Positions 3,707-56,703 of a stretch of 64,000 bases of DNA are shown in pieces; position 1 is the stretch's first letter; each line of letters starts with the position of its first letter. This DNA is from Phyllobates terribilis. Its lineage: Eukaryota. A program made the translations under genes and the position numbers. The notes beneath the pieces are model-generated. The model searched no databases, had not been told where the DNA came from, and was given only the letters and a program-made list of their open reading frames with translations. Where the stretch lies: the NCBI RefSeq assembly GCF_046119375.1, contig NW_027362761.1, positions 311,426,001 through 311,490,000 of the forward strand. Direction: 5' to 3'.

Positions 3707-5236
3707 AATATTGGTCCTCTCTGTGATCCATACTAGCATCAGCTACATAACGTCACGCAATGACCCTTCATTCAGGATACTTAGTAAATTAACACGTACG
3801 AGCCTCCGAAAGTATTTCCCTCAGAGCGTCTACTGCCGGCCAGGGCACCGCTCAAGTGACTCCTTTAATCAGACTGCACCTTAACTCCCGCACTATTGTA
3901 TACTCTTATATTTTGTTAGCAGAGACATCATTCTTTAAGATGCGGTTCACATATATATGTAAACACTTATATGTGCTACCTGTGTGGTATCCTATGTGTG
4001 GCGCCCCTGAGGGTTCAGTACTGCACCTCACGCAGAGGTGTGGTGTCTCTTTCTCTCAGGTAAGGAGGGAGTTCTGCCCAGAACCCCAACACCCGCATTC
4101 AACACTACACTACTCCCGGCCGGCTGGAAGGGCAAGATGCACTGTGCTTCTGCTGAGCCCTGTCCCCGGCTGGAGTGGGGGGAACCAAAGAGAGGGGGAA
4201 CCAGTAGTGGGTGAGGGTGGAGGATGCAGAACAGGGGAACACCATAATAGGAGGTATATAAAGGGAAGCCATCTTAGGGTGGCAGAGTAGTGCAGTGAAG
4301 TGAGTAGTGAGGAGTGGAGGGGAGCAGAGTCTCTTCAGGAGCTCTGCTCCAGAGTGGGGCCTGGCGAGAGAGGCCCAGGAGGGGAGCAGAGGAGGAAGGC
4401 TCCGGTAACTGAAGGGGTCCCAGGGGTACGGAAGGAGCAGGAAGCCACCCTACGCTCTAATCTGTCAAGTGACGGAGGGACCAGGCCGCAAGAAGGGAAC
4501 CCGTCCCTGGACCAGCCGTGTTACTCCAGGTCTAGGCTGGAAAAACCGGAGGCTTCTGCACTTCCATGGTGCAGTTGCCACAGTCTCACCCTAGTCACCG
4601 TGAAGGGCATCAAGTAGGTCCGGGAACTCCTGGTTGCCCAGAGGGACTTCAGAGCACCCGATCGGGACTGTGTGTGGGAAAGCGCAGGGCAGGAGGGAGA
4701 AGACCCAGCGCGAGAAGTCGGTCTAGTGAGGAAGATAAAGAAAGTGGGGTTCCGTCAAGCGCTCCTGATATACTTGAGAAAGTGCTGGACCCCTTATCTG
4801 GTAGACGCAGTGCGACGCGGGAGGCTGACACCTGTACAGTGTACCTGAGAAACTTGAACAAGAACTGTGAGTAAAACTCGGATGACTGCACTGCACTGCC
4901 TCCGTCAGTTATTTCTGCTGCGCCATCTCTCCTGCACTGCAAGCCCCAGCATCACCACCATTTGCACCTACACTACCCCGGGGGCCCGCTCCGCCTGTGG
5001 GGAGCAGAAACATCCCAGCTGCCATCCCATCACCCCCCGGAGGTCTGCAGCAGCGCCGGTAACCATTACCGGAAACCACAGGTGGCGTCACGAGACAAAC
5101 TGTACACTAAAAACGCTTTTTAAAGAGAGACCCAGAGTACGGGCCCGGGAGCCGACTGCCGTGACCTGCTAAACAAGGTAAAAGGCCCGGGCACCGAGTC
5201 CCCTATATTCCCCCTGGGTGACACAGCTCTCTTTCC

Positions 5237-5254
5237 TGGCGTCACGAACAGGAT
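5237..5254 (+). promoter_or_regulatory. Primer binding site, tRNA-Ser(CGA)
   Basis: TGGCGTCACGAACAGGAT is complementary to the vertebrate tRNA-Ser(CGA) 3' end ATCCTGTTCGTGACGCCA (recalled sequence). Confidence 0.88.
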
Positions 5255-5346
5255 TTCGTGCCCGTTGCCACCGGGTACTGTGTGCTTTATTTGAACTGTA
5301 TATTTTCACTGGATGTGGCGCCCGCCCCAGAAGAACAGGCGCCATT

Positions 5347-5847
5347 ATGTGCATACTCAAAGATAACAATATGGAACCTCCCATCGTGGGCCGGGTCCCA
5401 GAATAGCGCCAAAAACACAACCCGCCCCTTGCAACTGTGACTGTCCACATAGATGTGTCCGTCAAGGCGGGGAGGACGTCCCAGGGAGTGACCGACAGCA
5501 GGCTGCCATGGAGCCGCCCCCGAAAAGGGAGGGGAGGAGGAGAGAAGGAATGGAGACAGGGTGTGGTCTTAACCAGTCTAGACAGACCGCACCCGGCAGC
5601 CAGAATGGAAGAAAGCCAGGATGAAGCCTCCGCCTCTGGCCTGCAGCAACAGGTGCCCCCCCTCACCTTGGAGGGAGCAACAAGCAAGCTGTCCCCGGAG
5701 GATGCCGAATTCCTCCAAGCAGAGGTGCAGGAGCTGAGCCGCAGAGTCGAGGAGGAAGAGGACATGCCCCTGCAGTTCATGGCTCATGACCCGGCTGGGT
5801 CAGCCAGCGAAAATCAGGAGCACCCCTGGCGGGGATACCATCACTAA
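5347..5847 (+). pseudogene. Accessory ORF homologous to the N-terminus of the CSD protein at 34098; one in-frame TAG
   Basis: MCILKDNNMEPPIVGRVPE*RQKHNPPLATVTVHIDVSV aligns colinearly with MGVPKEGKRPPPIVGQDRKWRQKWKPPPPTETVMLEVSV. ORF-track entries 5218-5406 and 5437-5847 share one frame. Confidence 0.8.
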
Positions 5848-8334
5848 GTGAGAGTGAATGGACAAACTGTATATAATCACCCGTAAGGGTACATCTTGTT
5901 TGAGTAAGCTAAAGAGTTTTGTGTGCATAATAACCCCGTAAGGGTATACAGACTTCAGGCTGAGGACTGTGAGCAGCCAAGAACTGATCTTGTATATAGT
6001 TTGCAATTCTTAAAGTGCTCTCTATTGGTTTTATATTCGCAACCACAGACCTCAGAACAAAAACCCATTTGGCGTGGCCGAAGACGAGGTCCAGGACCTG
6101 GATCGTCTATGCCCTGCAGACACGCTCAGGGCCTACGTTGAGGGTTTTCGGATGGGTCCCTCATGCTGCTCGATTTGCACTTTTACCAGTGAGATGGACA
6201 CCCTGTTTGGGATCTCACTGCAATTTGCTTGAAAAATGTTGAAAATGTTTTACATGAGAAAATATGTAGATGTAAGTGAAAAGTTTTATATTGTTTGTAA
6301 TAATGTTACCCAGTAACGTTCAAGTAATGTGCCTCCCATAAAGGGAAGAAAAAGTTTTATGATCTTCTAAGCGAATGCATTCTAAAAATTTTGTATGTCT
6401 AAAATACCATGTTTTTGCTCAGTTCCAGCCCGCGGACATGCTGTGTTTTACCAGGGGGGAGTGTGGCGCCTCTGAGGGTTCAGTCGCCACAGAGGTACTG
6501 CACCTCACGCAGAGGTGTGGTGTCTCCTCTCAGGTAAGGAGGGAGTGCTGCCCGGAACCCCAACACCCGCATTCAACACTACACTACTCCAGGCCGACTG
6601 GAAGGGCAAGATGCACTGTGCTTCTGCTGAGCCCTGTTCCTGGCTGGAGTGGGGGGAACCAAAGAGAAGGGGAACCAGTAGTGGGTGAGGGTGGAGGATG
6701 CAGTGCAGGGGAGCACCATAATAGGAGGTATATAAAGGGAAGGCATCTTAGGGTGGCAGAGTAGTGCAGTGAAGTGAGTAGTGAGGAGTGGAGGGGAGCA
6801 GAGTCTCTTCAGGAGCTCTGCTCCAGAGTGGGGCCTGGTGAGAGAGGCCCAGGAGGGGAGCCGAGAAGGAAGGCTCCAGTAACTTAAGGGGTTCCAGGGG
6901 TACGGAAGGAGCAGGAAGCCACCCGTATGCTCTAATCTGTCAAGTGATGGAGGGACCAGGCCGCAAGAAGGGAACCGGTCCCTGGACCAGCCGTGTTACT
7001 CCAGGTCTCGGCTGGAAAACCGGAGGCTTCTGCACTTTCATGGTGCAGTTGCCACAGTCTCACCCTAGTCACCGTGAAGGGCATCAAGTAGGTCCGGGAA
7101 CTCCTGGTTGCCCAGAGGGACTTTAGAGCACCCGATCGGGACTGTGTGTGGGAAAGCGCAGGGCAGGAGGGAGAAGACCCAGCGCGAGAAGTCGGTCTAG
7201 TGAGGAACATAAAGAAAGTGGGGTTCCGTCAAGCGCTCCTGATATACTTGAGAAAGTGCTGGACCCCTTATCTGGTAGACGCAGTGCAACACGAGAGGCT
7301 GACACCTGTACAGTGTACCTGCGAAACTTGAACAAGAACTGTGAGTAAAACTCGGATGACTGCACTGCACTGCCTCCGTCAGTTATTTCTGCTGCGCCAT
7401 CTCTCCTGCACTGCAAGCCCCAGCATCACCACCATTTGCACCTACACTGCCCCGGGGGCCCGCTCCGCCTGTGGGGAGCAGAAACATCCCAGCTGCTATC
7501 CCATCACCCCTCGGAGGTCTGCAGCAGCGCCGGTAACCATTACCGGAAACTACAGGTGGTGTCACGAGACAAACTGTACACTAAAACCCCTTTTTAAAGA
7601 GAGACCCCAGAGTACGGGCCCGGGAGCCGACTGCCGTGACCTCCTAAACAAGGTAAAAGGCCTGGGTACCGAGTCCCCTATATTCCCCCTGGGTGACACA
7701 TATGTACCTTACATCTCATGCTTTAACCTCTGAATAATTAATTGTGGTTGTACCTATTTCATTTTAGCGCAAATATATTCTCATTTTAACACATGTAGAT
7801 GGATTCCCTGAGTGTAATTTGCAAAATCTGTTCATTTTTAGGGATTTCTACTGTTTTTGCAACTTAATGGTTCTGTAAATGGTGCCACAAATGATTCCAC
7901 GAAGTTCTGTGCTTCCAAAGGCAATTCCGCATGGATGGGGGGTTTTGTGGAAAATGCGCTCTGCTGTTGGTTATAGTGGTGAATCCAGATACACGTCAAT
8001 GGATTTGCAGCTTTTTATTTGTCTACGCGAAGTGTACAAACTTCTTCAGGACGAAATACGACCATTATATATACCTGGATTCACCAAATTTCCAGTGATT
8101 TAATAAATAAATTCAAAACTTATTGACCTAATTTTACCACTTGCATGAAGTACAAAGAGTCTCAAACAAACAAATTCAGAATTTCTGGGATTGGAAGAAG
8201 CATTCCAAAGTGACATGTCAGATTTGACAAATGGGACTCTGTCAGCAAGGTCGAAACAAACATTGGTGGTAAGGGGTTAAATTAGGCAATAGGCAAAAGT
8301 TATACAAAATCATATACATTACCACTCACAACAG

Positions 8335-8446: not shown

Positions 8447-8922
8447 ATGGTCATATTATTGCATAGATTTTGCTGGCTGCTCATCTTGATAGTTGGTAAG
8501 AGAAGTTTTACTTATAAAATATTAGATTGCATGAGAAACTGTGAGGATTGAAACATCATTTTTATATTACTGCCATTATAATATAAGTGTAATCCATATT
8601 TCTTCCAGAGTCCCGGGCACAGCACTCAGTGACACAGGAACCATCAATAACGATTTCTCCGGGACAAAATGTCAAAATGTCATGTACTTTAGGAGGAGGT
8701 CTAACTGTTGCCTCAAACAGGGTGATATTTTACCAACAAAAGGACAAGTCCCCCAAATATATCCTATATTATTTCACTGAGTCCAGCAACGGCAAGGGGC
8801 AAGATGTTCCGCCACGTTTTGTGGGGTCTGCCAAAAATAATATTGGGTATTTGAGTATAAATGATGTTCAGCAAGACGATGATGCTGTCTACTACTGTGC
8901 GACATGGACAGGTAGTCAGTGA
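8447..8922 (+). CDS. IGLV: Immunoglobulin light-chain V segment, lambda-like (exon 1 8447-8495, intron 8496-8608, exon 2 8609-8922)
   Basis: Leader MVILLHRFCWLLILIV, phase-1 GTAAG...TTCCAG intron. V domain QHSVTQEPSITISPGQNVKMSC...FYQQK...YYCATWTGSQ* with both Cys, YQQK and D.A.YYC. Followed by heptamer CACAGTG. Confidence 0.9.
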
Positions 8923-8961
8923 CACAGTGCCAGAAGATTATGAGGAAGTAATAAAGATATC
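8923..8961 (+). promoter_or_regulatory. Recombination signal sequence: perfect heptamer, probable 23-bp spacer, degenerate nonamer
   Basis: CACAGTG 8923-8929. Spacer contains ATGAGGAAGT, resembling V-lambda spacers. Nonamer position reads AAAGATATC (5/9 to ACAAAAACC). Confidence 0.7.
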
Positions 8962-13170: not shown

Positions 13171-14741
13171 TATGGGAGGAAAAGACACTACATAATAGAC
13201 TTGCACACCTCCAATATAGAAAATATAAAGAAGTTTATTAGACCAAACGAAACATAATAAAAACATTTTAAAAAAAGGACCATATATTGGCCTGCAAGAC
13301 TGTCCACCACATGGCAGGTATCAAAATAATGACACAATAATTGGACAATAAAATGAGCCCCCCAATAGCATATGAATATGACGCGCCCCTGGGCCTGCTG
13401 TGTCGCGCAGCGTCTCGCGCACGGGGGCTTACCCGGAACCGGATCAGATGAGGGTTGTAGTCTCCGAGTGGCGGGGACCCGGTCCGTGCCCAGGGAGTCA
13501 AACTCAGTGTGTGGCAGTCTTGATAGATGTTATTTGAGTGTCGACTACGCCACCCGTTGATTTGCAGCTATGGAGCTGCCGCTGCAGGGCAGACCGCTGA
13601 GGCCGGTGTAGAATTGTGCAGCGTGATAGTATAACCCCCAACGGGAGGGGTATGGCCTCAGGGCAGCCGACGTGGAAGATGGGGGTAGCAGGAACCACTC
13701 AGAGACGGTGCGGTGTAATTCAGGGTCTTTACTGGTAACAACGATAGACCCTCCCGGAGTACTTGCTAACGAACGGGGCCTGGTCAGTCCTTGAGCAGAT
13801 GGGATCTCCCCTGGCCAGGCGGAGTTGTAGGCCTCCCAAACTGACTGTACTCTTCTGGCTACCTTGCTAGAAGCGGATATAAGTAGCCCACGTCCCTGAG
13901 TGTACCGTGTGGTGCTCACCCGTATGGCCGGTGACTCGGGGCCTTCTAATGGCTTCCGCTCCACGATGGCGGTGCTGGTCCCACGCGTGTGACCGTGCCT
14001 TCGGGTTTTTGGGCCAGAGGACCTGCAATCCCCTGCCGGTCGGTTTCTGCTGCTGGGTAAGAGTTAGTCCCCACAGCCTCGGACGCCGGGTCCGGTAAGA
14101 AAGCTTCTCAGTCAGGGCGAGCTCTGCAGCTGCCAGCCCCTGACTCGTAGTAGTATTGCTCCCACTGAGCTTCTGCTGTTTCTTCCTATGACTGTTTCTT
14201 GTCTCTACTCTCCTTGACTGACTAACCCTGCCTCAGCCCCGGGTTTATACAGGGGAAGTTCTTCCCCTCCCAAGACTGGGCAGGAGGTGTGGCATGCACA
14301 GGATCCCTGACCAAAGGACCTCCCACCTGCTCTCAGACATAACATTACATTACTGTGGAAACCAGACCCCTGGGGTGCCACATTCCCCCCTAGTAAAATT
14401 TAGTACTCCGGGACTAAACACATTTTTGCAAACATACCAGAGTACAACCAAAACATTATAATAAAGAGACACATAACAATGGTCACGGCGTGTCCGCAAC
14501 CGGGTGCAGTCTTTGAGGGGAAGCAAGGTGTCCATTTCACCAAAACAGGGAGACGTAACCAGGTAGGGGTCTGTCCTACCCCGAGTCCTTAACAGTCTCT
14601 AGTCCATCCTGGGTTACGCTCCAACTAATTGTACAAGGATTTCCGGTAGATCCACCAAGGATTCCTAAAAATAACTAGAAACACAAAATTATACACAAGC
14701 AACAATACACAGGTAAACATAAATAAAACAATTTATACACT

Positions 14742-17700
14742 TTAAATCCTCCAGCGTGCGGGTAACTGGCCTCTAGTGGCTCTAGTGGACCTACGGAGCT
14801 GACTGTCTGGCCCCGAACTACAGGGTGTAGGAGCTGTCAAGGGTAAACTGGGCAGCTGTCTACGAGTTCCCTGGCTCACTAGGGATATGGCAGGCTCACT
14901 GCAAGCAGAGGATTGATCCTCCTGGTCTGCGGGTGTGGGGTCTTCTGCCTCCTGGACCGGCTGTTCTTCCAGCTCTACCCGTTGCTCCGTAGGTGCTTGG
15001 GATGACGGTTGGAGGAAGGTGAGTACGGGCACCACAACTGCAGCATTGACTTGAGTCCAAGACCGAGGGAAGTCCCCGAGCACAGTACTAACCATATCTT
15101 CCCTTTCCTCTACGGGTCGATGGTCTTCTTGTTCCTCTTCAGGGTTCTTCAGTTGTTCGGGACACTTCTTCAGGTGGTCCCGGGATACAATGGCTGTGGT
15201 TTCCCCTCCGTCTTTACTGATGGTGCAGACCTTCGGGTTCTCGTGGCTTGAGGGCAGTACGGTGTACGGGTCCTTCTCCCACTGGTCGTCCAACTTGTGG
15301 AGCCGTCTTTTCCTCTTTAAGACCTGCTCTCCGGGTACCAGGGGAACGGCGGGAGCGTACTGGTTGTAAGTTTTCTCTTGTCTTTCCCTAGCCTGACAGA
15401 GACTTCGCTCCACGCTCTCCTGTACTTTCCGGTACTGTTGCTGCCTCTCTGTGTCCCAGTCTGCTTCTGGTGAAGTGTCCTCGGGTGTCAGGACTCCCAT
15501 TTCCAGGTCAACAGGTAACTTACCAGGTCTCGCCCTCATTAGGTAAGCCGGGGTACAGTTGGTGGAACCTACCGGGATGTGGTTGTATAGGTCCACCAGA
15601 TCGGGCAACTTCTCAGGCCACAGACTGCGTTCTTCCAGGGGCAACGTTTTTAGAAGATCCATTACCACCTGGTTCATTTTTTCACAAAGTCCATTAGTTT
15701 GCGGATGGTAGGGTGTCGTCCTTATCTTCCGGCAGCCATACAGATTGCAAAATTCCTGGAAGACCTCCGCTTCAAAGGCAGGTCCCTGGTCCGTCAGCAC
15801 TTGGTCCGGGTACCCGTGTGGACGGCAGAAGTGCTGCTGGAAGGCTCTAGCTGCTGATTGAGCCGTTAAGTCCTTGACGGGGACGACAACCAAGAACCGG
15901 GAGTAATGATCCACGATGGTTAACGCGTAGACGTAGCCACTTCTGCTTGGGGTCAGTTTTACATGATCCAAGGCTACCAGTTCCAATGGTTGCCGGGTGA
16001 CGATGGACTGCAGGGGAGTCTTCTGGCTGGCACGGTCCTTCCTTCTTAGGTTGCACGGGCCACAGTCTCTGCACCACTTCTCGATGGTTCCCCTCATGCC
16101 TACCCAGTGGAACCGCTCGCGCAGCAGGAACTCCAGCTTCTTCCACCCGAAGTGTCCAGCTCCGTCGTGGTATGCCTCCATCACCATGGCTGCGTCTCTT
16201 CGTGGCACCACTACTTGCCAGAGTAATTCATGCGTCCGGGAGTTAACCATTCTGCGGCACAACTTCCCTTTGTAAAGGAACAGTCGACTCTTCTCTGCCC
16301 ATAGTTGTTTGGCTTCCTCCGGAGCGTCTGGTTCAAGGCGAGCCTCCGGCCGAGTCAGCATCTCCTTCACCAGTCGGACGGCAGGGTCGCTGTCTTGCGT
16401 TTCCGCCCAGTTGTAGTGGGGTAAGGGGTTCAACGTAGCAGCCTGCTTACTCCTTACCCGGTGGGAATACTGGATAGTCCCATGACGGTGGAACGCAGGG
16501 AGTTCAACTTCTTCCAGTCCCTCCGGATCTTCTCCTCCGTCCGGCAGGTTGGGCATCCTGGACAGGGCGTCCGCATTGGTATTGGAGCGTCCTGCCCGGT
16601 ATTTGATTGTGAACTCGTAGTTGGACAGACGGGCCATCCACCTCTGCTCCAGGGCACCGAGTCTTGCCGTGTCCAGGTGTGTCAACGGGTTGTTATCCGT
16701 GTACACGGTGAACCGGGAAGAAGCGAGGTAATGCTTAAAGCGCTCGGTGACTGCCCATACCACGGCCAGGAACTCTAGCTTAAATGAGCTGTAATTCTCG
16801 GGGTTCCTTTCGGTGGGTCGCAGTTTTCGGCTGGCGTAGGCGATTACTCGTTCTTTCCCTTGCTGAATCTGGGACAGTACGGCTCCTAGCCCGATGTTAC
16901 TGGCGTCGGTGTAGAGGATAAAGGGCTGGCTATAATCCGGGTACGCCAGGATTTCGTCCCTCGTGAGGGCCATCTTCAGCTGGCGGAAGGACTCTTCTTC
17001 CAGCTCCTCCCATTTGAAGGGCGGCTTCTGGTTCTTGGCCTTCCGGGACTGGCCTATCAGGAGGTCCTGCATAGGTGCTGCCTTTTTGGTGAAACCGGGA
17101 ATAAACCTTCGGTAGTAGCCTACCAACCCGAGGAACTGCCGCACTTCTTTTACGCTGGAGGGGCTTGGCCATTCCTTAATTGCGGTGATCTTATCAGGGT
17201 CGGGATCCACTCCGTCAGTGCTCACCACGTGTCCCAGGTACTGCACCTTTGGTTTCAGGAGGTGACACTTGGAGGGTTTCACCTTTAGGCCGTAACTCGC
17301 CAGAGCCTCGAACACTTCCGCCAGGTGTTTCAGGTGGTCCTCATACGTCTTGGAATATACGATGACATCGTCCAGGTACAACAGGACCGTCTCGAAGTTT
17401 CTGTGGCCCAGACAACACTCCATTAGTCGTTGGAAGGTTCCTGGTGCGTTGCAGAGTCCGAACGGCATGCAGGTGAACTCGCTAAGTCCCATCGGGGTGG
17501 TGAATGCGGTCTTCTCCCGGTCCGCCTCTGCTACAGGAACCTGCCAGTACCCGCTAGTGAGATCCAAGGTAGAGAAGAAGTTAGCAGATCTTAAAGCAGC
17601 CAAAGACTCCTCTATCCTTGGTAAGGGGTACGCATCCTTGTGTGTGATACGGTTGATTTTCCGGTAATCTACACACATCCTCATGGTGTTGTCTTTTTTT

Positions 17701-18878
17701 CTGACTAAGACTAGTGGAGCTGCCCAGGGGCTACAGCTATCCCTGATCACCCCAGCCTCCTTCATGTCTCTAAGCATCCCCTTGGCGTGTTGGTAGTGGG
17801 CAGGGGGTACGAGTCGATACCTCTCTTTTATAGGAGGATGGTCTCCCGTGGGGATGTGGTGTTCTACCCCCTTGACTCGCCCGAAGTCTAACGGGTGTTT
17901 ACTGAACACTCTCTCGTACTCTTGAACCACCCGATAGACTCCTTGTTTCTGGTGTGCGGGAGTGGAGTCAGTACCCAGATGTAGTTGCTGACACCAGTCC
18001 TCCATGTTTTTCTTAGAGCCGTTACCTTCCTCCGGGTGAGATGGAGGCAAGGGTTCCACAGATTGTATAGAATTTTGGTTAATGGTATATAATTTGGCTA
18101 GCGTGGCATACCGGGGCAGGTACACTTCCCTCTCCCCGATATTTATTATGCGAACGGGCACCCTCCCATGGCGTACATCAACCACCCCCCGTGCTGTCAA
18201 AATGGTGGGCCTACTGTCTGAGTAAACTGGTTCTACCATTGCCTGGTAATCCCTACCTCTCAGACCAATAGCTGCCGGGCACCAAATCATCATTTCACTT
18301 TTTGGGGGCATGGCAATAGGAAAAGGGTCACACATTCTTACGCTACCAATCTCACCGCCGGAGAGTTCCACCTGTTGCCGTCGCATCAGTGCCCGGATCT
18401 CTTTCTGGAGCACCCGCTGCTCGCCGGAGCTGGCGTTCTTGGCAACCTGCTGTAAAAGGAAAATCACCTCTGCAAGACAATTTTCAATTACATTAGTTCC
18501 TAGAGTTATTTTTGGGTGACTCTCATGTTTGTCAATATCTACAATGATCAGTCCCTGTGCTGCCAGTTCGACTCTACCGATTTTGATGGTCACCTCTTTA
18601 AATCCGATCTGTGGCACGGGCTGGCCATTGCTGGCGATGATACTCAAGTCGTCGTCAGGGTAGCGGGTAATATCCGAGTCATTCCAGTACTGCTTAAAGA
18701 GCACGTACGGGATGGTGGTGACCTGTGACCCGGTGTCCAGTAGGGCACTCATGGGAATGCCATCCAGTACCACAGGCAAGACTGGACGTCCTCCCACATA
18801 TCTGTCGCGCCAGTTCGATGGGCCTGGTGATCTTTTTCCTGGGGGTTGGCCCTCTACCCCAGGTTGTGCCCGTTTAAA
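14742..18878 (-). CDS. pol: Gypsy Pol (PR-RT-RNaseH-IN), predicted -1 frameshift fusion to Gag
   Basis: LLDTGSQ protease, YLDD RT, TDAS RNase H, HHCC plus LDH/TDQG/GLCE integrase. 1351-aa ORF with no stops; frame stays open up to the slippery site. Confidence 0.95.
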   Translation of the reverse strand, partial: FKRAQPGVEGQPPGKRSPGPSNWRDRYVGGRPVLPVVLDGIPMSALLDTGSQVTTIPYVLFKQYWNDSDITRYPDDDLSIIASNGQPVPQIGFKEVTIKIGRVELAAQGLIIVDIDKHESHPKITLGTNVIENCLAEVIFLLQQVAKNASSGEQRVLQKEIRALMRRQQVELSGGEIGSVRMCDPFPIAMPPKSEMMIWCPAAIGLRGRDYQAMVEPVYSDSRPTILTARGVVDVRHGRVPVRIINIGEREVYLPRYATLAKLYTINQNSIQSVEPLPPSHPEEGNGSKKNMEDWCQQLHLGTDSTPAHQKQGVYRVVQEYERVFSKHPLDFGRVKGVEHHIPTGDHPPIKERYRLVPPAHYQHAKGMLRDMKEAGVIRDSCSPWAAPLVLVRKKDNTMRMCVDYRKINRITHKDAYPLPRIEESLAALRSANFFSTLDLTSGYWQVPVAEADREKTAFTTPMGLSEFTCMPFGLCNAPGTFQRLMECCLGHRNFETVLLYLDDVIVYSKTYEDHLKHLAEVFEALASYGLKVKPSKCHLLKPKVQYLGHVVSTDGVDPDPDKITAIKEWPSPSSVKEVRQFLGLVGYYRRFIPGFTKKAAPMQDLLIGQSRKAKNQKPPFKWEELEEESFRQLKMALTRDEILAYPDYSQPFILYTDASNIGLGAVLSQIQQGKERVIAYASRKLRPTERNPENYSSFKLEFLAVVWAVTERFKHYLASSRFTVYTDNNPLTHLDTARLGALEQRWMARLSNYEFTIKYRAGRSNTNADALSRMPNLPDGGEDPEGLEEVELPAFHRHGTIQYSHRVRSKQAATLNPLPHYNWAETQDSDPAVRLVKEMLTRPEARLEPDAPEEAKQLWAEKSRLFLYKGKLCRRMVNSRTHELLWQVVVPRRDAAMVMEAYHDGAGHFGWKKLEFLLRERFHWVGMRGTIEKWCRDCGPCNLRRKDRASQKTPLQSIVTRQPLELVALDHVKLTPSRSGYVYALTIVDHYSRFLVVVPVKDLTAQSAARAFQQHFCRPHGYPDQVLTDQGPAFEAEVFQEFCNLYGCRKIRTTPYHPQTNGLCEKMNQVVMDLLKTLPLEERSLWPEKLPDLVDLYNHIPVGSTNCTPAYLMRARPGKLPVDLEMGVLTPEDTSPEADWDTERQQQYRKVQESVERSLCQARERQEKTYNQYAPAVPLVPGEQVLKRKRRLHKLDDQWEKDPYTVLPSSHENPKVCTISKDGGETTAIVSRDHLKKCPEQLKNPEEEQEDHRPVEEREDMVSTVLGDFPRSWTQVNAAVVVPVLTFLQPSSQAPTEQRVELEEQPVQEAEDPTPADQEDQSSACSEPAISLVSQGTRRQLPSLPLTAPTPCSSGPDSQLRRSTRATRGQLPARWRI
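18820..18878 (-). promoter_or_regulatory. -1 ribosomal frameshift signal (U UUA AAC plus H-type pseudoknot)
   Basis: Heptamer 18872-18878 in Gag phase, 8-nt spacer, stem 1 CCTGGGG/CCCCAGG, loop GGGCC pairing with downstream GGCCC. Confidence 0.8.
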
Positions 18879-19834
18879 GAACAGTACCTTGCCATATGTC
18901 CGGGTTGATTGCAGCGGCGGCAGATGGGTCGTCCGTCCTCGCTGTATCGGTCACTGGGTCTTCCTCTGGCCGGTGGGGTCCTCCTTGGTTGATGCCACGG
19001 GATGTCCTCCGGTCCGGATGCCAGCTGGATCTTCCCTGGGGTGGAAGCCTGTAAAGACTGCACAGTTCGGGTTAGCGCAGCAACGCTCTTAGCTAGCTCT
19101 TGGACCTGATGGTGTAGGTCTGGAGCCGGGTCATTGTCCAAAGCCTGCGCATCAGCTCCCGCAGGCCCTGCCGACAAAGGCGCCGCCTCCTGGTGGTAAG
19201 TGATAGCAGGGCGCCTGTGGGTCACAACGCCACCCGGTGCCGGTTCTCGGAGCACCCGGATGGCTCTGTCCTTGAACTGTGCAAAGCCCAGATGGGGATC
19301 CTGTAAGGCCATTGCTCGCAACTGGGTTCGGTGGGTATTACAATATAGTCCCTCTATAAACTGTTCGGTCAACAGCCTGTCCTCGTTTCCCACTCCATCA
19401 GGGTCGGTCTGCTTAATGGCCCTCAGGGCCTCTTGTAGGTTTAGTGCATAGTCCCTTATACTCTCATGCGCTCGCTGCTTGCACCCGTAGAACCTAAGCT
19501 TAATCTCGGCTGAGGTGCGGGTATCAAAGGTGTCCTTCAGCCGGGTTAGTATCCCTGCGACAGTCTTCCTCCCAGGTGGCCAGGATTTTACTTCCCTTTT
19601 GGCTGCCCCGGTTAGTTGGGCCACCAGGATGCTCACTTTTTGCTCTTCTGTGAGGGGGTACACCTGGAAGAGGCTATCCAGCTTTTCTCTAAAGTCATGC
19701 AGGGTATGTGACTCCCCTGAGTACTGGGGTAGCCAAGCTGCTCCCGGGATATAGGGCATGGTGAAGGGCATAACTGCAGCAGCGGTAGCGCTGGCGGGGG
19801 TTGAGGCAGTGAAGCTCTCCTCCGTATCCGACAT
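18854..19834 (-). CDS. gag: Gypsy Gag, PNMA-like capsid with CCHC knuckle, 326 aa from ATG 19834
   Basis: MSDTEES...WLPQYSG...LTGAAKREV...CRRCNQPGHMARYC. Confidence 0.9.
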   Translation of the reverse strand: MSDTEESFTASTPASATAAAVMPFTMPYIPGAAWLPQYSGESHTLHDFREKLDSLFQVYPLTEEQKVSILVAQLTGAAKREVKSWPPGRKTVAGILTRLKDTFDTRTSAEIKLRFYGCKQRAHESIRDYALNLQEALRAIKQTDPDGVGNEDRLLTEQFIEGLYCNTHRTQLRAMALQDPHLGFAQFKDRAIRVLREPAPGGVVTHRRPAITYHQEAAPLSAGPAGADAQALDNDPAPDLHHQVQELAKSVAALTRTVQSLQASTPGKIQLASGPEDIPWHQPRRTPPARGRPSDRYSEDGRPICRRCNQPGHMARYCSLNGHNLG

Positions 19835-21297
19835 CTTCCTCCCCCCTAGTGGACCGTGGCCTACCTTGCGATGATCCTCTTCCGTAGGCCGTGGCTCCGC
19901 AGTGGATGGTTGAGGACCTTCCGTCGCGCTCCTGTGACGTCGGCGTCTGCTGGGCTCCTTCCAGGACCTTACGCAACGTCCGGACGTGAGGCGGGGCTTC
20001 AGTTCTCGCGGGCTTTTCGGAGTCCAGGGAGTCAAACTCAGTGTGTGGCAGTCTTGATAGATGTTATTTGAGTGTCGACTACGCCACCCGTTGATTTGCA
20101 GCTATGGAGCTGCCGCTGCAGGGCAGACCGCTGAGGCCGGTGTAGAATTGTGCAGCGTGATAGTATAACCCCCAACGGGAGGGTTATGGCCTCAGGGCAG
20201 CCGACGTGGAAGATGGGGGTAGCAGGAACCACTCAGAGACGGTGCGGTGTAATTCAGGATCTTTACTGGTAACAACGATAGACCCTCCCGGAGTACTTGC
20301 TAGCGAACGGGGCCTGGTCAGTCCTTGAGCAGATGGGATCTCCCCTGGCCAGGCGGAGTTGTAGGCCTCCCAAACTGACTGTACTCTTCTGGCTACCTTG
20401 CTAGAAGCGGATATAAGTAGCCCACGTCCCTGAGTGTACCGTGTGGTGCTCACCCGTATGGCCGGTGACTCGGGGCCTTCTAATGGCTTCCGCTCCACGA
20501 TGGCGGTGCTGGTCCCACGCGTGTGACCGTGCCTTCGGGTTTCTGGGCCAGAGGACCTGCAATCCCCTGCCGGTCGGTTTCTGCTGCTGGGTAAGAGTTA
20601 GTCCCCACAGCCTCGGACGCCGGGTCCGGTAAGAAAGCTTCTCAGTCAGGGCGAGCTCTGCAGCTGCCAGCCCCTGACTCGTAGTAGTATTGCTCCCACT
20701 GAGCTTCTGCTGTTTCTTCCTATGACTGTTTCTTGTCTCTACTCTCCTTGACTGACTAACCCTGCCTCAGCCCCGGGTTTATACAGGGGAAGTTCTTCCC
20801 CTCCCAAGACTGGGCAGGAGGTGTGGCATGCACAGGATCCCTGACCAAAGGACCTCCCACCTGCTCTCAGACATAACATTACATTACTGTGGAAACCAGA
20901 CCCCTGGGGTGCCACAAATATAATAAATAAGTAAGGTATTACATCCAGATAGTGTGGTAACACATATTTAAGAAGATTCCCTGATGAATCTGGGTAAACA
21001 AAAACTTACATGGAATGGATGGAAAATATCACATATGCAAGGCAGTAAATTACTGTTAATAAATGAAGGAACACATTTCATAACAATAATATAAATTTGA
21101 GAAACATGTCACATTCTGTGAGCCATCCACAATAAGAAGGTTATCACAAAGAAAGGTAACTATAAAACCACATTATTGGAACAATAAATCTTACGGAATA
21201 CATGATAAGCATCCCATCAGGATAATGGGTCATTACCTAAGAATGACCTGCAATTGAATGAGGGCCTGTGTAGCGTCAGGCAGAGGACAGGACGAGA

Positions 21298-32648: not shown

Positions 32649-33842
32649 TGTAGCACCCTGAGGATTCGGCTGCTACAGGGGTATTGCACCTCAACCCAGA
32701 GGTGTGATATTCCACTCCCGGGTAAGGATGGAGTGTGGAACTGAGCTCGGTAGGCTGCATGCACTACACACATCCCATTTCCGGGGAGCAGACCGACGGT
32801 ACTCCCACTTGGAAATGTGCAGGTACGACCGAGTCTGTTCCTGGCTGGAGTGGGAGGGGGGTGGTACATCCCAAGTAGTGTAGGGGCAGATAGGGGGAGC
32901 AGCCTGGGTAAAGATAGGAGCTCATTGGGTGCTGGTCACCTGAGCTCACACATAGAGGGTGTATATAAGGTGGGCACCAACTAAGAACAGGGTCAGATGC
33001 AGAGAACAAGTCAGCAAGCAGAGGAGAAGAGAGACCCAGAGTGAGAGAGGAGAAGAGAGACCCAGAGGGGGAAACAGAAAAGAGGACTCCAAGAACCCAA
33101 CTTAAATCCCCGGGTGAAGAGTCGGCACAGGGTACCGGATCCCAAACTGGCGGGGGCAGAAAACACACCCTAGCCAGAGACCGGAGGCCGTGGGCAGCAT
33201 CTGCCACGGCCACCCATCACATCCACCCCGAAGGCACACCACATGAAGGGTCAGGGAACCCAAGGCCAAGGGTGTCCCAACAGAAGGCCCGAGGGAGCTG
33301 GACCTAGGTGGATCACTGGTGGGGACGGCCAGAGAACGGGACAGAAGGAGAGCTCAGGGCCACGCTCCGGACTTGTTTGGGGGTTGGCTGGATCCAGGAC
33401 CTGGTGGACGCAGCACGGCTCGGGTGGTCACTCGAAGCTGGAGTGACCAGTACAACATCTGCAGTAAGTAAACACCCTTAACTGCACAACCCGACTCTGT
33501 CTTCATTGCCGTCTGCACTGCACCACCACAACCCCCATCCTCTGCACCTGTCCCCCCTGAGGCTATACCCCTCCCGTTGGGGGTTATCCCACCAAGCTGC
33601 GCACCCACCATCAGCCTCAGCGGACCCTGCTGCAGCGGCGGCCACAGTGACCGCATCACAACGGGTGGCGTAGTCGACACAAAAGAACTCTTAATAACAT
33701 CTGTAGGACTGCCACATAACACTGAGTTTGACGCCCTGGGCACGGGCCGGGTCACAGCCGCTCGGAGACTACAACCCCCCATCTGATCCGGTGCCGGGTA
33801 TTCCCCTCAAAAAGGAATATGTCCCAGGGGGCGCGTCAACTT

Positions 33843-33860
33843 TGGCGTAGTCGGCAGGAT
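33843..33860 (+). promoter_or_regulatory. Primer binding site, tRNA-Ser(AGA/TGA)
   Basis: TGGCGTAGTCGGCAGGAT is complementary to the tRNA-Ser 3' end ATCCTGCCGACTACGCCA (recalled sequence). Confidence 0.9.
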
Positions 33861-34097: not shown

Positions 34098-35867
34098 ATG
34101 GGCGTGCCAAAGGAGGGCAAGAGGCCGCCTCCCATCGTGGGCCAGGACAGAAAATGGCGCCAAAAGTGGAAACCGCCCCCACCAACAGAGACTGTGATGC
34201 TAGAGGTGTCTGTCAGCGTGAAAGAACTACCCCTGGAGCTGACAGTCACCGAGTTGCCCCGGGACCGCCCTCAAAGTGGGAGGAGACGAAAGAAAAGAAC
34301 GAAGATGGGTGCCGCCTGGAGCAGTCTGGAGCGAGCGCACCCGGAGGCAGGAAGCCTGGAGAAGAGTAGCAGAGAAGCTCACCCGGAGATGGCGAGAGAG
34401 CAGAGCAGCACCGGCCCGCTGGCCAGGAGCCTGCTGGAAGAAGAGCAGAGCAGCACCGACCCGTTGGTCAGGAGCCTGCTGGAAACCACGACCCCACTAG
34501 GCCTAGTGGAGGTCCTTGCACAGCTCCCCCGAGACCGGGAGTGTGCACAGACTGCCCTGGAGAACCTCGCACAGAGGTTGGCCCGGGTACAGCGAGAGAC
34601 ATTGGCGGAGTGGAGCCGAGAGATGGCCCAGCAAACCAAGACCCGGAGCACGCCAGCCAAGATGAGGAGACAGACCGCCTCTGAGGATGGCGCGGGAGGA
34701 CCCAAGGCCGGAGACGGCGCCGAGAAGGGAGCCGAACGCATGGAGGCAGGTAAAGGGGACGTCTATACCCCAAACCGGGACACCGCTTACCTGCCCCAGC
34801 TCCCCGTCGCAGAGCCCGAAAGTCCCCCTGCTGTGCCCGAAAACGCCATGTCACCGACGCAGACTAGGCCCCAACCGGAAGCCGCCGCCGCGACCCCTGT
34901 GACGTCACGCGCCTCGACCCGGAGCGTGACAAAGCAGGAAATACCACCAGCCTGGTCGCAAGGCCTAGTACCCCCGGGCGCCGCATCACCAACAGCGCCC
35001 CCTACCTCCGCGGAGCCTCCGGCCTGGCCGCAAGGCCAGGTAGCCCAGGGCGCCGCCGTCCTAACGGTGCCCTTCACCTTCCAGGTGCCCCAGGCCTGGC
35101 CGCAAGGCCTGGGCAACCCGGGCGCCACCACCACCGCGCCCGCACCCGTAAAACCAAGGGTGCCGCGTCTGGGAGAGGACTTGTTTGCCCAGCACACGTG
35201 GCCGGACGGGCAGCCTTTCATCTGGCCCCAGAGGTATTATGAACTGGAGCACCAGAGGAGAGTTGGGGCCATGTGTGCACCCCTGATTCCGGCTCCGAAG
35301 CCCGTGAGAAGGATCTCGCCCCCGCTTGAAGAGGCCCAATTTGAGTGGGACCCCACCGGAGAAGACCTAATGGGGTTCACTCAGGAAACCAGGGCAGCTG
35401 CAGCGGAGCGTGCTGAGTGTTGCCGACAGCAGCTCGAAGAGTTTGCGAGGGAGCGGAGAGAGAGGCGGGTCCGGGAACAGCAGGCCCAAGTACGGAGTGC
35501 CGAGCAGAAGAGCCGGACCAGGAGGGACCCCCGTGCAGCGCATTGTCCCCGCACCATCGGGACAGTGATCAAGTTCAACCAGCAGCATGGGTGGGGCTTC
35601 ATCCGAGACAACAACACCCCCGGCGACGTCTTTGTCACGCGCAGAGACGTGGAGTCCCATCTGCCGGAGGGGCACAGAGGTCGTGACCTCTACATCGGAG
35701 ACGAGGTCACCTTCACCCGGCACAAGTGTGCCAAAGGACCTTACGCCCTCCACGTACACCGCCTGACGGAGGAGGAGTTGCGGTGCGAGGAGGAGGAGCA
35801 AGAGGACCCGGACGGGTCTGAAGTTACAACCAGCTACAAGCAAAGAGCAGGAGGAAGACGCCGTTGA
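34098..35867 (+). CDS. ~589-aa protein: low-complexity N-terminus, coiled coil, C-terminal cold-shock (CSD/OB-fold) domain, acidic tail
   Basis: CSD at about 35553-35765: GTVIKFNQQHGWGFI..DVFVT..GDEVTFT..AKGPYALHV. The frame is open from 33819; ATG 34098 (CGCCATTATG) was chosen by colinearity with the 5347 homolog. Confidence 0.88.
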   Translation: MGVPKEGKRPPPIVGQDRKWRQKWKPPPPTETVMLEVSVSVKELPLELTVTELPRDRPQSGRRRKKRTKMGAAWSSLERAHPEAGSLEKSSREAHPEMAREQSSTGPLARSLLEEEQSSTDPLVRSLLETTTPLGLVEVLAQLPRDRECAQTALENLAQRLARVQRETLAEWSREMAQQTKTRSTPAKMRRQTASEDGAGGPKAGDGAEKGAERMEAGKGDVYTPNRDTAYLPQLPVAEPESPPAVPENAMSPTQTRPQPEAAAATPVTSRASTRSVTKQEIPPAWSQGLVPPGAASPTAPPTSAEPPAWPQGQVAQGAAVLTVPFTFQVPQAWPQGLGNPGATTTAPAPVKPRVPRLGEDLFAQHTWPDGQPFIWPQRYYELEHQRRVGAMCAPLIPAPKPVRRISPPLEEAQFEWDPTGEDLMGFTQETRAAAAERAECCRQQLEEFARERRERRVREQQAQVRSAEQKSRTRRDPRAAHCPRTIGTVIKFNQQHGWGFIRDNNTPGDVFVTRRDVESHLPEGHRGRDLYIGDEVTFTRHKCAKGPYALHVHRLTEEELRCEEEEQEDPDGSEVTTSYKQRAGGRRR

Positions 35868-37534
35868 GTGCGGCAGAGCAGGAGATGTAGATAGTTACCC
35901 GACCGGGTACCAAAGAAACTGTTGCTACATATATATAGTCCCCGTTGGGACCAGCATGAGTGAACTGTGTACCCGTTATTCCGTATCCATACCAGGCTGA
36001 GGACTGTGAGCAGCCATTCCCTTTCCCTCCTTAACTGGCCGAGGGCTGAGAGCGGCCAACTTCCCCTGTATATAGTTGCGCTTCCTAAAGCGCCCCCTAC
36101 TGGTTTTATAGGAAAACCAGTTTTCCAGAGAGACTGTCGCACTTTACCCGGTCACACGTTGCACAGTGACCGGAGGAGAAGCAAGAAACGACGACGAGAA
36201 TGTTTTATAAGAAAGAATGTTTTATTTGCTAATATATGTTGTTTTATATGTTTATGAAAAATTTTGTATGTTTTGGTGTTTTGTCTTACAGCCCGAGGAC
36301 GTGCTGTGATTTACCAGGGGGGAATGTAGCACCCTGAGGATTCGGCTGCTACAGGGGTATTGCACCTCAACCCAGAGGTGTGATATTCCACTCCCGGGTA
36401 AGGATGGAGTGTGGAACTGAGCTCGGTAGGCTGCATGCACTACACACATCCCATTTCCGGGGAGCAGACCGACGGTACTCCCACTTGGAAATGTGCAGGT
36501 ACGACCGAGTCTGTTCCTGGCTGGAGTGGGAGGGGGGTGGTACATCCCAAGTAGTGTAGGGGCAGATAGGGGGAGCAGCCTGGGTAAAGATAGGAGCTCA
36601 TTGGGTGCTGGTCACCTGAGCTCACACATAGAGGGTGTATATAAGGTGGGCACCAACTAAGAACAGGGTCAGATGCAGAGAACAAGTCAGCAAGCAGAGG
36701 AGAAGAGAGACCCAGAGTGAGAGAGGAGAAGAGAGACCCAGAGGGGGAAACAGAAAAGAGGACTCCAAGAACCCAACTTAAATCCCCGGGTGAAGAGTCG
36801 GCACAGGGTACCGGATCCCAAACTGGCGGGAGCAGAAAACACACCCTAGCCAGAGACCGGAGGCCGTGGGCAGCATCTGCCACGGCCACCCATCACATCC
36901 ACCCCGAAGGCACACCACATGAAGGGTCAGGGAACCCAAGGCCAAGGGTGTCCCAACAGAAGGCCCGAGGGAGCTGGACCTAGGTGGATCACTGGTGGGG
37001 ACGGCCAGAGAACGGGACAGAAGGAGAGCTCAGGGCCACGCTCCGGACTTGTTTGGGGGTTGGCTGGATCCAGGACCTGGTGGACGCAGCACGGCTCGGG
37101 TGGTCACTCGAAGCTGGAGTGACCAGTACAACATCTGCAGTAAGTAAACACCCTTAACTGCACAACCCGACTCTGTCTTCATTGCCGTCTGCACTGCACC
37201 ACCACAACCCCCATCCTCTGCACCTGTCCCCCCTGAGGCTATACCCCTCCCGTTGGGGGTTATCCCACCAAGCTGCGCACCCACCATCAGCCTCAGCGGA
37301 CCCTGCTGCAGCGGCGGCCACAGTGACCGCATCACAACGGGTGGCGTAGTCGACACAAAAGAACTCTTAATAACATCTGTAGGACTGCCACATAACACTG
37401 AGTTTGACGCCCTGGGCACGGGCCGGGTCACAGCCGCTCGGAGACTACAACCCCCCATCTGATCCGGTGCCGGGTATTCCCCTCAAAAAGGAATATGTCC
37501 CAGGGGGCGCGTCAGTGGTGGCTCTTCAGGTCGC

Positions 37535-44803: not shown

Positions 44804-45865
44804 ATGTCCGACGAACAGCAGAACGCCGACCTGCCGGTCAATGTCCCTGAGTTGCAACCCGCGCCCGATGATGAACAGGCCGAAGCCGCCACTCCACCTT
44901 CAGCGCCTGTAACACCTGTAATTCCTATGACTTTACTGTACATTCCTGGAGCGAAGTGGCTCCCCCAGTATAACGGCAAACCAGATACCCTGTCTGGATT
45001 CAAACGGAAGATAAGTGGTATCTTAGACATGTACTCTATGACCGGCAAACAAAGAGCAGCCGTGGTATTAGGACAACTGACTGGTGCTGCGGAACGGGAA
45101 GTGGAAATATGGTCGGCAGCAGACCAGGAGTCAGTGTCCGCAATCTTTCAAAAACTACAGACTGTCTTTGAGGACCTTACTGAGGCGGACCTCCGGATGA
45201 GGTTCTACAGCTGCTCCCAACAACCGGAGGACAATGTTCGGGACTACGCCTGGCGTCTTCAAGGGGCCCTGAGGGCTCTGAACCAGGTTAGTCCAACCAG
45301 CGTTGAAAATGAGAACAAAATGCTGAAGAAACAGTTTGTCTGGGGACTGAAGTCTCCAGAGGAGAGCAGGACAGTGCGTTGGTGGTCCCTGGATCATCCA
45401 GATGCCACCTTTGACAACCTTAAGGACATGGCTATAAAAGGACTGCAGCCCCTGGAAACAAATGCCATCCAACATTACCAGGGTGGGGCTACCCCAGGGC
45501 CTGCTTCACCTACCTTGTCCCCAGTGGCTGCTGAAGCTAAGGTTCCAGCAACATCCCCTAAAGAACTGGACAGTCTGCGCTCGGAGGTGCGTCAGTTGAG
45601 CAAAACCCTGACCACCGTGCTGAGTGCTCTGCAGCTGCGGACGGAGCCCGAGGAAGGAGGGAAAATCCTGCTAGCCGATAGCCCTGAGGATGTCCCCTGG
45701 ATACGGAGGAGGAGGAGGCCAACACTGCCCTCGCCGAGGATCAGTGAGCAGCGCCGTCCACAGAAGGACCCTGCCTGCTACCGCTGCCGCAAGACCGGAC
45801 ACCTCGCCCAGAAGTGTCCTTTAAAAGAGAAAACCCTGGGTCCGAGGGCCAACACCCAGGAGTAA
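44804..45865 (+). CDS. gag: Gag of element B, PNMA-like with CCHC knuckle, 353 aa
   Basis: MSDEQQ..WLPQYNG..LTGAAEREV..CYRCRKTGHLAQKC. Confidence 0.88.
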   Translation: MSDEQQNADLPVNVPELQPAPDDEQAEAATPPSAPVTPVIPMTLLYIPGAKWLPQYNGKPDTLSGFKRKISGILDMYSMTGKQRAAVVLGQLTGAAEREVEIWSAADQESVSAIFQKLQTVFEDLTEADLRMRFYSCSQQPEDNVRDYAWRLQGALRALNQVSPTSVENENKMLKKQFVWGLKSPEESRTVRWWSLDHPDATFDNLKDMAIKGLQPLETNAIQHYQGGATPGPASPTLSPVAAEAKVPATSPKELDSLRSEVRQLSKTLTTVLSALQLRTEPEEGGKILLADSPEDVPWIRRRRRPTLPSPRISEQRRPQKDPACYRCRKTGHLAQKCPLKEKTLGPRANTQE

Positions 45866-48800: not shown

Positions 48801-49959
48801 CGCCTCTGTCAAAGACCTGATGGCAGAGACAGCAGCAAAGACGTTTCAAGCGTATTTCTGTAGACCCCATGGTTACCCTGTGCAGGTGCTGACGGACCAA
48901 GGCCCGGCCTTTGAGGCTGAGTTGTTCAAGGAGTTCTGCCATTTGTACGGTAGTAAAAAGATAAGAACTACACCGTACCACCCACAAACCAACTGTCTCC
49001 GCGAAAAGATGAACAACATCATCATCGACCTGCTAAAAACTATACCACTTGAGGAGAGAAATCAGTGGACAGACCTACTACCTGACCTAGTGGATCTGTA
49101 CAGTCATATACCAGTCAGTTCCACCAACTGCACTCCGGCATATCTCATGCGGGCAAGGCCAGGAAAGCTGCCCATGGATCTGGAGTTTGGTGTTGTTGAG
49201 CCTGAAGCTGATATGACCACTGAAGACTGGGACAAGACCAGACAAGAGCAGTACAGAAGAGTACAAGCCTGTGTCGAGGATAGTCTTACTCGGGTGAGAG
49301 AAAAGCAGGAAGCGCACTACAACAAAAACGCACCCGCAGAACCTTTCATACCAGGTGAAACAGTATTAAAATGGAAAAGACGTAACCACAAACTTGATGA
49401 CCTGTGGGAAAAAGACCCCTACACTGTGTTACCGTCAAGATTTGACAATAAGAAGGCATGCATAATCAGTCAAGATGGAGGAAAAACATCTACCACAGTG
49501 TCCAGGGATCACCTAAAGTTGTGTCCAGACTTACTGAAACCCCAGGAAGAAGTGCCTCTCACAATCCCAGAAGAACCTAAAGAAACAGTGATCCACACTG
49601 ACATAGGAGACTTCCCAGCAGATTGGCCTCAGATAGGAGGAGCAGTAATCATCCCAGTACTCCAATTCTATGAACAGCCAGAAAACCCTCCACAGCAAGT
49701 TGAACCTGTAAGTGCTGCAGAAGAGCCAGCTCAAGAAGTATCCCCGGATGAAGGATCCCCGGTAGGAGCAGAGCAAGAGGGCCCAGCCAATGGTAGACTT
49801 GCCAGCCCAAGAGAGAGTTTAAGGCAGTTTTACAACATGGTCACACGTAGAACTGGTAGAGTAACTGAAAATACAGACACTGACACCCCACAGACCACCG
49901 CACTACGCAGATCAACACGTAGCACGCGAGGTAAACCCCCTGCTAGGTACACGCAGTAG
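45820..49959 (+). pseudogene. pol: Pol of element B (PR-RT-RH-IN), two frameshifts and one nonsense codon
   Basis: Split across ORFs 45814-47325, 47234-48382, 48404-48766 and 48769-49959. LLDSGSQ, YLDD, DAS, HHCC and DDE motifs present. Confidence 0.93.
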
Positions 49960-56547: not shown

Positions 56548-56703
56548 CATGCAGTACAGCATATTACAAACATAAGTTCCATTATTGGGGAGTGTGTCTC
56601 CCATAGTATTTGCTTATGCTTTCCCAGCAAAAGCTGCCAAAAATTAGGACGGAGCAACTTGCAATGCCCCTTACAAGAGCCATGCAGTACAGCATATTAC
56701 AAA

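Follow-up and report, generated by a model that had tools for sequence, protein, structure and literature searches.

A non-autonomous long terminal repeat element family encoding a cold-shock-domain protein in the poison frog Phyllobates terribilis

We analysed a 64,000-nucleotide stretch of the Phyllobates terribilis genome (contig NW_027362761.1, positions 311,426,001 to 311,490,000; hereafter the window), in which a broken open reading frame (ORF) at 5347..5847 lies within a long terminal repeat (LTR) element, here called element A. This window copy is a decayed, dead deletion derivative of a larger non-autonomous LTR family whose ORF ends in a cold-shock domain (CSD) and of which the window holds a second, open-frame member, element B. 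The family is apparently an undescribed and very abundant variant of non-autonomous LTR element. On balance, we favor the explanation that element A is a decayed copy of a satellite family without gag or pol, copied by Gypsy helpers and carrying a selected CSD protein that would bind its own RNA and protect or steer it.

Structure and decay of element A

Element A consists of the following parts, all on the plus strand:
3997..5225, 5′ LTR, matching the 3′ LTR at 96.8% of ungapped columns
5237..5254, primer binding site, complementary to tRNA-Ser(CGA)
5347..5847, CSD-family ORF of 166 codons, broken (stop at 5404-5406) and internally deleted
5377..5392, 16-mer common to families A and B, within the nucleotide-constrained 5′ coding block
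5744..5746, in-frame deletion junction, about 936 nt (312 codons) gone
5958..6163, 3′ untranslated block, 69% match to the gag-pol element at 50113-50296
6450..6461, polypurine tract
6462..7700, 3′ LTR

The element is flanked by a 4-bp target duplication, TATG, at 3993-3996 and 7701-7704. The 5′ LTR carries a TATA-like box at approximately LTR position 260 and an AGTAAA signal 355 nt before its end, and we therefore took about the last 330 nt as the unique 5′ region (U5). The 3′ untranslated block is partly common to element B as well.

Searching the genome with the element A block returned 40 matches (93-100%) out of 3056 candidates, and 30 loci were examined. Two of these 30 family-A loci had full open frames, of 478 and 479 amino acids, with a CSD at the end that scored 24.0 and 25.8 bits, just below the Pfam cut-off of 27; their C-terminal module was 48% identical to that of element B. 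What is missing at 5744-5746 is the proline-rich middle, together with the conserved helix and the CSD. An initial annotation of the window, made from the sequence alone, had allowed that this copy either lost the CSD or never had it. Because the full-length relatives possess the domain and the junction is in frame, the CSD was lost, and the second option falls away. The exact junction was found at 13 genomic places on seven contigs, in copies 86-91% identical to the window copy, several of which carried frameshifts or stops. The stop at 5404-5406 occurred in 1 of 27 other family-A copies in which the start was found, and in 0 of the 11 further copies with the same junction and a retained N-terminus; it postdates the deletion and is a late, nearly private change. 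Two further copies (L004 and L025) had a second common in-frame junction, with short microhomology. With a rate of 2.5e-9 per site per year, as given in the available part of bioRxiv 10.1101/2023.11.06.565769, we estimate that element A is ~6 million years old and element B less than 0.2 million.

Element B and its relationship to element A

Element B has a 4-bp target duplication (GTGG) and the following parts, all on the plus strand:
32649..33838, 5′ LTR, 1189 of 1190 nt the same as in the 3′ LTR
33843..33860, primer binding site, complementary to tRNA-Ser(AGA/TGA)
34098..35867, open ORF, 589 amino acids
35328..35522, WD-GEDLMGF motif with the long helix, a region under purifying selection
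35559..35759, CSD, residues 488-554 (PF00313, 34.8 bits, cut-off 27)
36325..37514, 3′ LTR

The ORF encodes, in order, a disordered basic N-terminus, a helix, a proline-rich middle, the WD-GEDLMGF motif with a 45-residue helix, the CSD, and an acidic tail. The primer site, together with the 40 nt that follow it, matches a Gypsy leader at 57773-57828 with 93% identity. We also observed that the whole insertion (32645-37518) lies within a hAT-like transposon region, and contigs of four sequencing runs bridge the empty site, as expected of either a recent insertion or a multi-copy target.

As the initial annotation had described, both ORFs begin in CGCCATTATG, at 5340 and 34091, and the 16-mer is identical in the two, at 5377 and 34128. 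The homology that it proposed was well borne out: the alignment score of 145 (with X at the stop) exceeded the shuffle maximum of 84 and was reached by none of 5000 whole shuffles and none of 5000 shuffles within 10-residue windows. Residues 1-40 and 41-90 were each significant separately (0 of 3000 shuffles), and DNA identity was 68% over 281 nt. The alignment was said to be gapless, which is true up to about residue 61; two one-residue gaps follow. The later DAEFLQ/DRECAQ block, quoted as a further match, did not stand in the pairwise comparison, in which 576 of 3000 shuffles were equally good. It is homologous only via intermediate subfamilies, which link A and B across the helix, and its last residues in element A derive from beyond the deletion junction. 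The true coding frame was the best of the matched frames (193 vs 104-163), and the other frames also scored well, a first sign that the A-B likeness may be largely at the DNA level.

The two elements do use different serine tRNA isoacceptors, CGA in A and AGA/TGA in B, as had been noted. On 30 loci (L301-L330), all of which have a perfect tRNA-Ser 3′ end, ARAGORN called six tRNA-Ser genes (one CGA, three AGA and two TGA). The other 24 received no such call and are likely tRNA fragments copied by the reverse transcriptase of these elements.

Size and diversity of the family

Exact genomic matches to the 16-mer common to A and B number 27,950 (control 0), and those to a codon pattern for the GWGFIR motif of the CSD number 23,168 (control 4). 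We sampled 60 copies by position, namely the first 60 of 100 listed 16-mer places, all within the first 20 Mb of contig 1. A flanking direct repeat was present in 58 of the 60, a CSD match in 55, and a frame open through the CSD in 32. Gag or pol was found between the repeats in none of them; pol matches at six loci lay outside or at the edge of the repeats. The CSD was likewise absent between the LTRs of all 20 gag-type loci. An autonomous LTR element with an extra ORF does not fit these two counts, and the description of the ORF as accessory gives way to that of the sole gene of a separate non-autonomous element. The family shows paired LTRs, a primer site, a polypurine tract and target duplication, with no reverse transcriptase or integrase, as a non-autonomous partner would.

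Many copies are young. The LTR pairs were at least 99% identical in 36 of 58 cases, and median LTR identity was 99.8% in open-frame copies vs 98.0% otherwise. Of the 38 copies whose ends were clean, 36 had a 4-bp target duplication, and the surrounding sequence often alternated between purines and pyrimidines. Copies without the CSD made up 5 of the 60 and, like those sharing the window junction, were decaying. Protein identity among subfamilies fell as low as 32%.

Several divergent forms were also observed. A very divergent CSD element (L370:1447-3411, minus strand), with 129-bp terminal repeats 97.7% identical and a Ser(AGA/TGA) primer site, sits in a pol gene and represents a third lineage resembling terminal-repeat retrotransposons in miniature. 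Another divergent CSD ORF (L369:3227-4123, minus strand; 42 bits), around which no LTR pair was seen, keeps the histidine of ribonucleoprotein motif 2 (RNP2), and its CSD may be closer to the donor. A sub-lineage (L372, L373, L374) has kept the CSD alone, without the N-terminal part, the reverse of the deletion in the window. A young subfamily (L133 and L139, LTRs ~99% identical), open through the CSD in L139, has no first ATG; a downstream methionine near residue 90-100 may serve as its start.

The CSD and the preceding helix are under purifying selection

Among 11 pairs of natural open-frame copies, the ratio of nonsynonymous to synonymous rates (dN/dS) was computable in nine for the CSD (0.08-0.23) and in nine for the WD-GEDLMGF helix (0.04-0.30). 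In codons 1-90 it was mostly 0.4-1, with low dS. Between A and B, dS was 0.6-0.7 in codons 1-90 and 1.8-2.6 in the C-terminal module. Divergence at four-fold sites was 0.22-0.25 in codons 1-90 and 0.46-0.47 in the C-terminal module. In a comparison of shared with singleton variants, for which 40-43 of the 60 copies could be aligned to element B, the nonsynonymous/synonymous counts (N/S) were 19/84 for shared and 21/13 for singleton variants in the CSD (p=5e-6), and 24/69 and 21/14 in the helix (p=7e-4). The middle helix (p=0.13) and codons 17-90 (p=0.4) gave no such signal. The CSD and the helix before it are thus under purifying selection, and the N-terminal motif, proposed earlier as the family marker, is the part with the least evidence of selection at the protein level.

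The 5′ coding block is conserved in another way. PPIVG-like matches at loci not picked by the 16-mer had the same 15 nucleotides in 36 of 45 (some loci being counted twice and one match being spurious), and the most distant ones differed mainly at silent sites; the frame was intact in all 53 scored copies (seven unscored). The block is probably read in frame but kept mainly as a nucleotide signal, which could be a packaging signal or an internal promoter. A more recent exchange of the 5′ end would give a similar picture. Folding energy does not explain the constraint, as z for stable RNA structure was only -1.1 to 0 in four copies, and comparison of the block with helper leaders gave no pair above z=2 among 50. 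E2F-like and YY1-like words, by motif definitions that we assumed, were enriched in the leaders of both element types, with at least one motif at p up to 0.05 in 7 of 9 cases.

Fold and relatives of the CSD protein

The CSD of element B passed the PF00313 profile and is predicted to have the five strands of the oligonucleotide/oligosaccharide-binding fold. The selected module is predicted to form a 45-residue helix (residues 22-66) and a five-strand barrel, with a predicted local distance difference test (pLDDT) score of 82. This model resembles the domains of CspA, YBX1, YBX2 and Lin28, with template modeling scores of 0.76-0.89 to CspA and YBX1. In the N-terminal model, residues 1-110 are disordered (pLDDT 43-56) and residues 117-157 form a helix. 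The element CSD retains the aromatic core of RNP1 and RNP2, has the long loop after RNP2 seen in the YBX1 sequence, and is predicted to have the same fold; it differs from the Y-box proteins and CspA in being only ~33% identical, in having GWGF in RNP1, and in the 45-residue helix that precedes it. The best PDB sequence matches were YBX1 domains (E 6.5e-5) and CspA (4e-3), whereas Foldseek placed CspA above YBX1. A CSD tree of 74 columns had almost no branch support (1 of 24 branches starred) and included no intact host Y-box domain. Host CSDE1-like domains scored poorly against the element CSD profile, and the ESM Atlas held only generic CSD clusters, under 0.9. We also noted intron-less, tandem CSDE1-like multi-CSD copies broken by a long interspersed element-like frame (L344-L349), which are likely processed pseudogenes.

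In a profile search of 1.84 billion proteins, five single-domain matches stood out among the best 150, from Phyllobates terribilis, Ranitomeya variabilis, R. imitator and Anomaloglossus baeobatrachus (two). The hosts belong to Dendrobatidae and Aromobatidae, in which diverged relatives are thus annotated, known as proteins alone; the protein P0001 is nearly the same as element B and was not counted as independent. The lack of matches from other frogs is uninformative, owing to repeat masking. The N-terminal profile matched none of the longer proteins. PPIVG-like likeness seen by eye in P0004 and L370 was not supported, since this profile scored them at shuffle level, as it did P0012; the helix of P0002 alone beat shuffles (9.1 vs 5.3 bits).

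Shared U5 regions and chimeras point to Gypsy helpers

A primer-site and stem pattern had 40,985 genome matches, the first 30 of which comprised 12 CSD-type, 17 gag-type and one other element. The CGA primer site had 8,830, with eight CSD-type (two chimeric), 21 gag/pol and one unassigned among the first 30. Both serine primer sites stand before gag and before the CSD ORF. In all 40 LTRs examined, AGTAAA or AATAAA occurred 342-394 nt before the end. The U3-R part found its best match in the same body type in 40 of 40, and its cross-type identity (0.58-0.68) was close to the shuffled baseline of 0.62-0.63. For U5 (the last 300 nt), cross-type identity was 0.69-0.91, vs a baseline of 0.56-0.59, and exceeded same-type identity in 12 of the 40. 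LTR termini and polypurine tract were also alike between CSD elements and helpers. A tree of U5 and primer site (51 of 95 rows, near-identical rows and L126 being dropped) interleaved the CSD and gag types, with 10 changes; a CSD clade was rejected (approximately unbiased test, p-AU 7e-57).

The locus L250 is a chimera. Its two LTRs are 96.5% identical and combine a CSD-type U3-R (91%) with a helper-type U5 (92%), and its body has a helper leader and gag start (92%) followed by a CSD end; L251 is similar, with weaker matches. Reverse transcription begun on one RNA and finished on another yields such mosaics, an established retroelement mechanism, and L250 would be the product expected if it started on helper RNA and ended on CSD RNA. 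From L250 and the sharing of U5 we infer that helpers mobilize the CSD elements. The earlier proposal of an old, diversified ORF lineage riding on several Gypsy helpers is supported in that the lineage is paired with several helper lineages; the riding itself is suggested by common cis-sequences and chimeras.

We also observed that U5 holds a 10-nt copy of the matching primer site, 150-180 nt before the true site (window 5083, 33666 and 57606). The copy is found in CSD and gag-pol LTRs alike and varies with the tRNA used.

A proposed satellite with its own RNA-binding protein, and the alternatives

In the reading that we favor, the CSD element would be a satellite with its own promoter and body, whose U5, primer site and termini fit the helper. 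Its RNA would be co-packaged in particles of Ser-primed Gypsy helpers, and template switching there would exchange U5 between the two. The ORF would be translated and the CSD protein would bind, in cis, the RNA that encoded it; the bound RNA would be protected or delivered into helper particles, and selection on the CSD would act during this copying. Since CSD-less derivatives arise repeatedly yet stay rare, the benefit likely falls mainly on the protein's own RNA; that the open-frame copies are the youngest also speaks for action in cis. The setting may be the germline, in particular the oocyte. Y-box proteins mask mRNA in oocytes. The oocyte is a plausible setting because Gypsy expression is high in poison-frog ova, according to the part of PMC6278860 available to us. 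More tentatively, the satellite may have swapped gag-pol for a captured Y-box-like gene, loading or shielding its own RNA in the oocyte and switching helpers through U5 and the primer tRNA.

Several observations weigh against this reading. Copies without the CSD spread to 13 or more sites and account for 3 of the 36 youngest, so that supply of the protein in cis is not a strict requirement. Plain ageing would likewise link youth with an open frame, and the sampled copies come from the first 20 Mb of one contig. The element CSD has other residues in place of the Trp preceding RNP1 and the His following RNP2, which we take to be RNA contacts in Y-box domains, and might bind RNA weakly or in an altered way. 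For the youngest B subfamily, the sample contains no very close helper U5 (best 0.76-0.80), and the mixed LTRs of L126, L013 and L007 could stem from recombination after insertion. No run on record as RNA contains the element sequence; in four runs of guessed or unknown kind, contigs span it and show no clear splice joint, a result that speaks neither for nor against expression.

The two partners might instead be mutualists, together forming a two-part retrotransposon in which the CSD protein acts in trans and also helps the helper, perhaps by keeping host Y-box proteins or silencing factors off both RNAs through displacement. CSD elements with a close U5 exist for each of several helper lineages, abundance is similar among Ser-primed elements (CSD 12 to gag 17 of 30, and 8 to 21 of 30), and the Quinta-Cereba pair has been called partly mutualistic in the accessible text of PMC11302176. 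We regard this as unlikely, though worth keeping in view: under shared benefit the shorter CSD-less copies should take over, yet they are rare, one helper clade (eight rows) has no CSD partner in the sample, and none of the 20 helpers carries the CSD gene. Improbable, in our opinion, is an action on single-stranded DNA or on the promoter, with the protein aiding strand transfer or activating its own U3. Y-box proteins are able to bind single-stranded DNA, CSDs in complex with it are among the matched structures, U3-R is family-specific and kept across CSD subfamilies, and the basic stretches could be nuclear signals. A zinc knuckle is, however, already present in the helper Gag, and a promoter effect would work in trans, favoring CSD-less copies.

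We give very little credence to the ORF being a highly diverged Gag, as in 1A11, Xretpos and Quinta, with the CSD replacing nucleocapsid. Its place after the primer site, its helices and its C-terminal nucleic-acid-binding domain would suit a Gag, but profile comparison with helper Gag gave probabilities of only 0.3% for the N-terminal half and 0.1% for the C-terminal module, Pfam matched neither a capsid nor a zinc knuckle in the ORF, and the N-terminal model is one long helix with no capsid fold. It is just as improbable that the ORF is a mere passenger, open through youth or through RNA-level constraint alone. The 5′ 90 codons would fit, given N/S at p=0.4 and a four-fold divergence about half that of the C-terminal module; for that module itself the idea is refuted by the strong synonymous excess in helix and CSD across lineages 32-51% identical.

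Other features of the window

The window holds three further Gypsy-derived elements:
13371..20916, minus strand, gag-pol element C, gag at 18854-19834 and pol at 14742-18752
44804..51692, plus strand, broken gag-pol element D
56702..61614, plus strand, element E, an internally deleted C-family copy whose leader is fused to the RNase H-integrase portion of pol

Element C has lost its 5′ LTR end and primer site by deletion; its lineage has U5 and primer site in common with B-type CSD elements, and element E displays the leader in common with element B. A-type CSD elements, for their part, have U5 and 3′ untranslated blocks in common with the lineage of element D. Solo LTRs lie at 9-1214, 42550-43754 and 55520-56550, the first two with CSD-type U3 starts, and such solo LTRs therefore add to the family's share of the genome. 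An immunoglobulin V-set exon (8611-8960, E 1e-13) has a stop just upstream of a CACAGTG heptamer at 8923, after which come 23 nt of spacer and a nonamer of poor match; an antigen-receptor V cluster contains or adjoins the window.

Comparison with known systems and significance

Non-autonomous LTR elements are usually non-coding or encode Gag alone. High-copy LTR elements that use helper enzymes include MaLR (with ERV-L), ETn (MusD), VL30 (MLV) and zebrafish BHIKHARI; these have retroviral helpers and non-coding or Gag-derived ORFs, whereas the helpers of the CSD elements are likely Gypsy elements.

As far as the accessible text of PMC11302176 goes, RLG_Quinta and RLG_Cereba of wheat are alike in that Quinta is a non-autonomous LTR element with an intact ORF, mosaic by recombination, sharing primer site, LTR termini and a 3′ LTR part with its helper. 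Quinta differs in encoding Gag together with a domain whose function is not known and in having one helper family, whereas the CSD ORF shows no homology to Gag and is paired with several helpers and two primer tRNAs; the shared LTR part starts at the TATA box in Quinta and near the putative polyadenylation signal in the CSD elements. The Xenopus elements 1A11, Xretpos and lambda-olt, in the portion of PMC4585706 at hand, are likewise LTR elements of frogs in which an ORF is present and pol absent, but the 1A11 protein is Gag-like, the Xretpos ORF Gag-like or unrelated, copies number tens to hundreds, no helper is named, and a cold-shock domain is mentioned nowhere in that portion. ORF3 of bdelloid LTR retrotransposons comprises non-canonical enzyme or binding domains common to several lineages (PMC5408684, partial text); it sits in autonomous gag-pol elements, whereas the CSD ORF is the only gene of a separate element. 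The consulted part of a review of large transposons (PMC6431247) does not mention the domain, and the passage on CSD that we saw for carp (PMC13583293) concerns a host gene. We found no CSD-coding LTR element described in the literature; Repbase, Dfam and supplementary repeat libraries were outside this search and could hold the family.

At ~28,000 copies of ~5 kb, the family would make up on the order of 1% of the 10.6 Gb genome before solo LTRs are counted. It may form part of the 66,046 ‘Unknown’ LTR elements reported for a poison frog (bioRxiv 10.1101/2023.11.06.565769, part of the text), and it would explain ‘uncharacterized CSD proteins’ in poison-frog annotations, if these are LTR-flanked. 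If the favored reading is true, a satellite of more than 20,000 copies is a main unrecognized part of giant poison-frog genomes, and a retroelement parasite has its own packaging or anti-masking factor. A selected CSD gene, kept across lineages down to 32% identity, offers a handle on the competition between parasite and helper for packaging, and on how elements cope with RNA masking in amphibian eggs.
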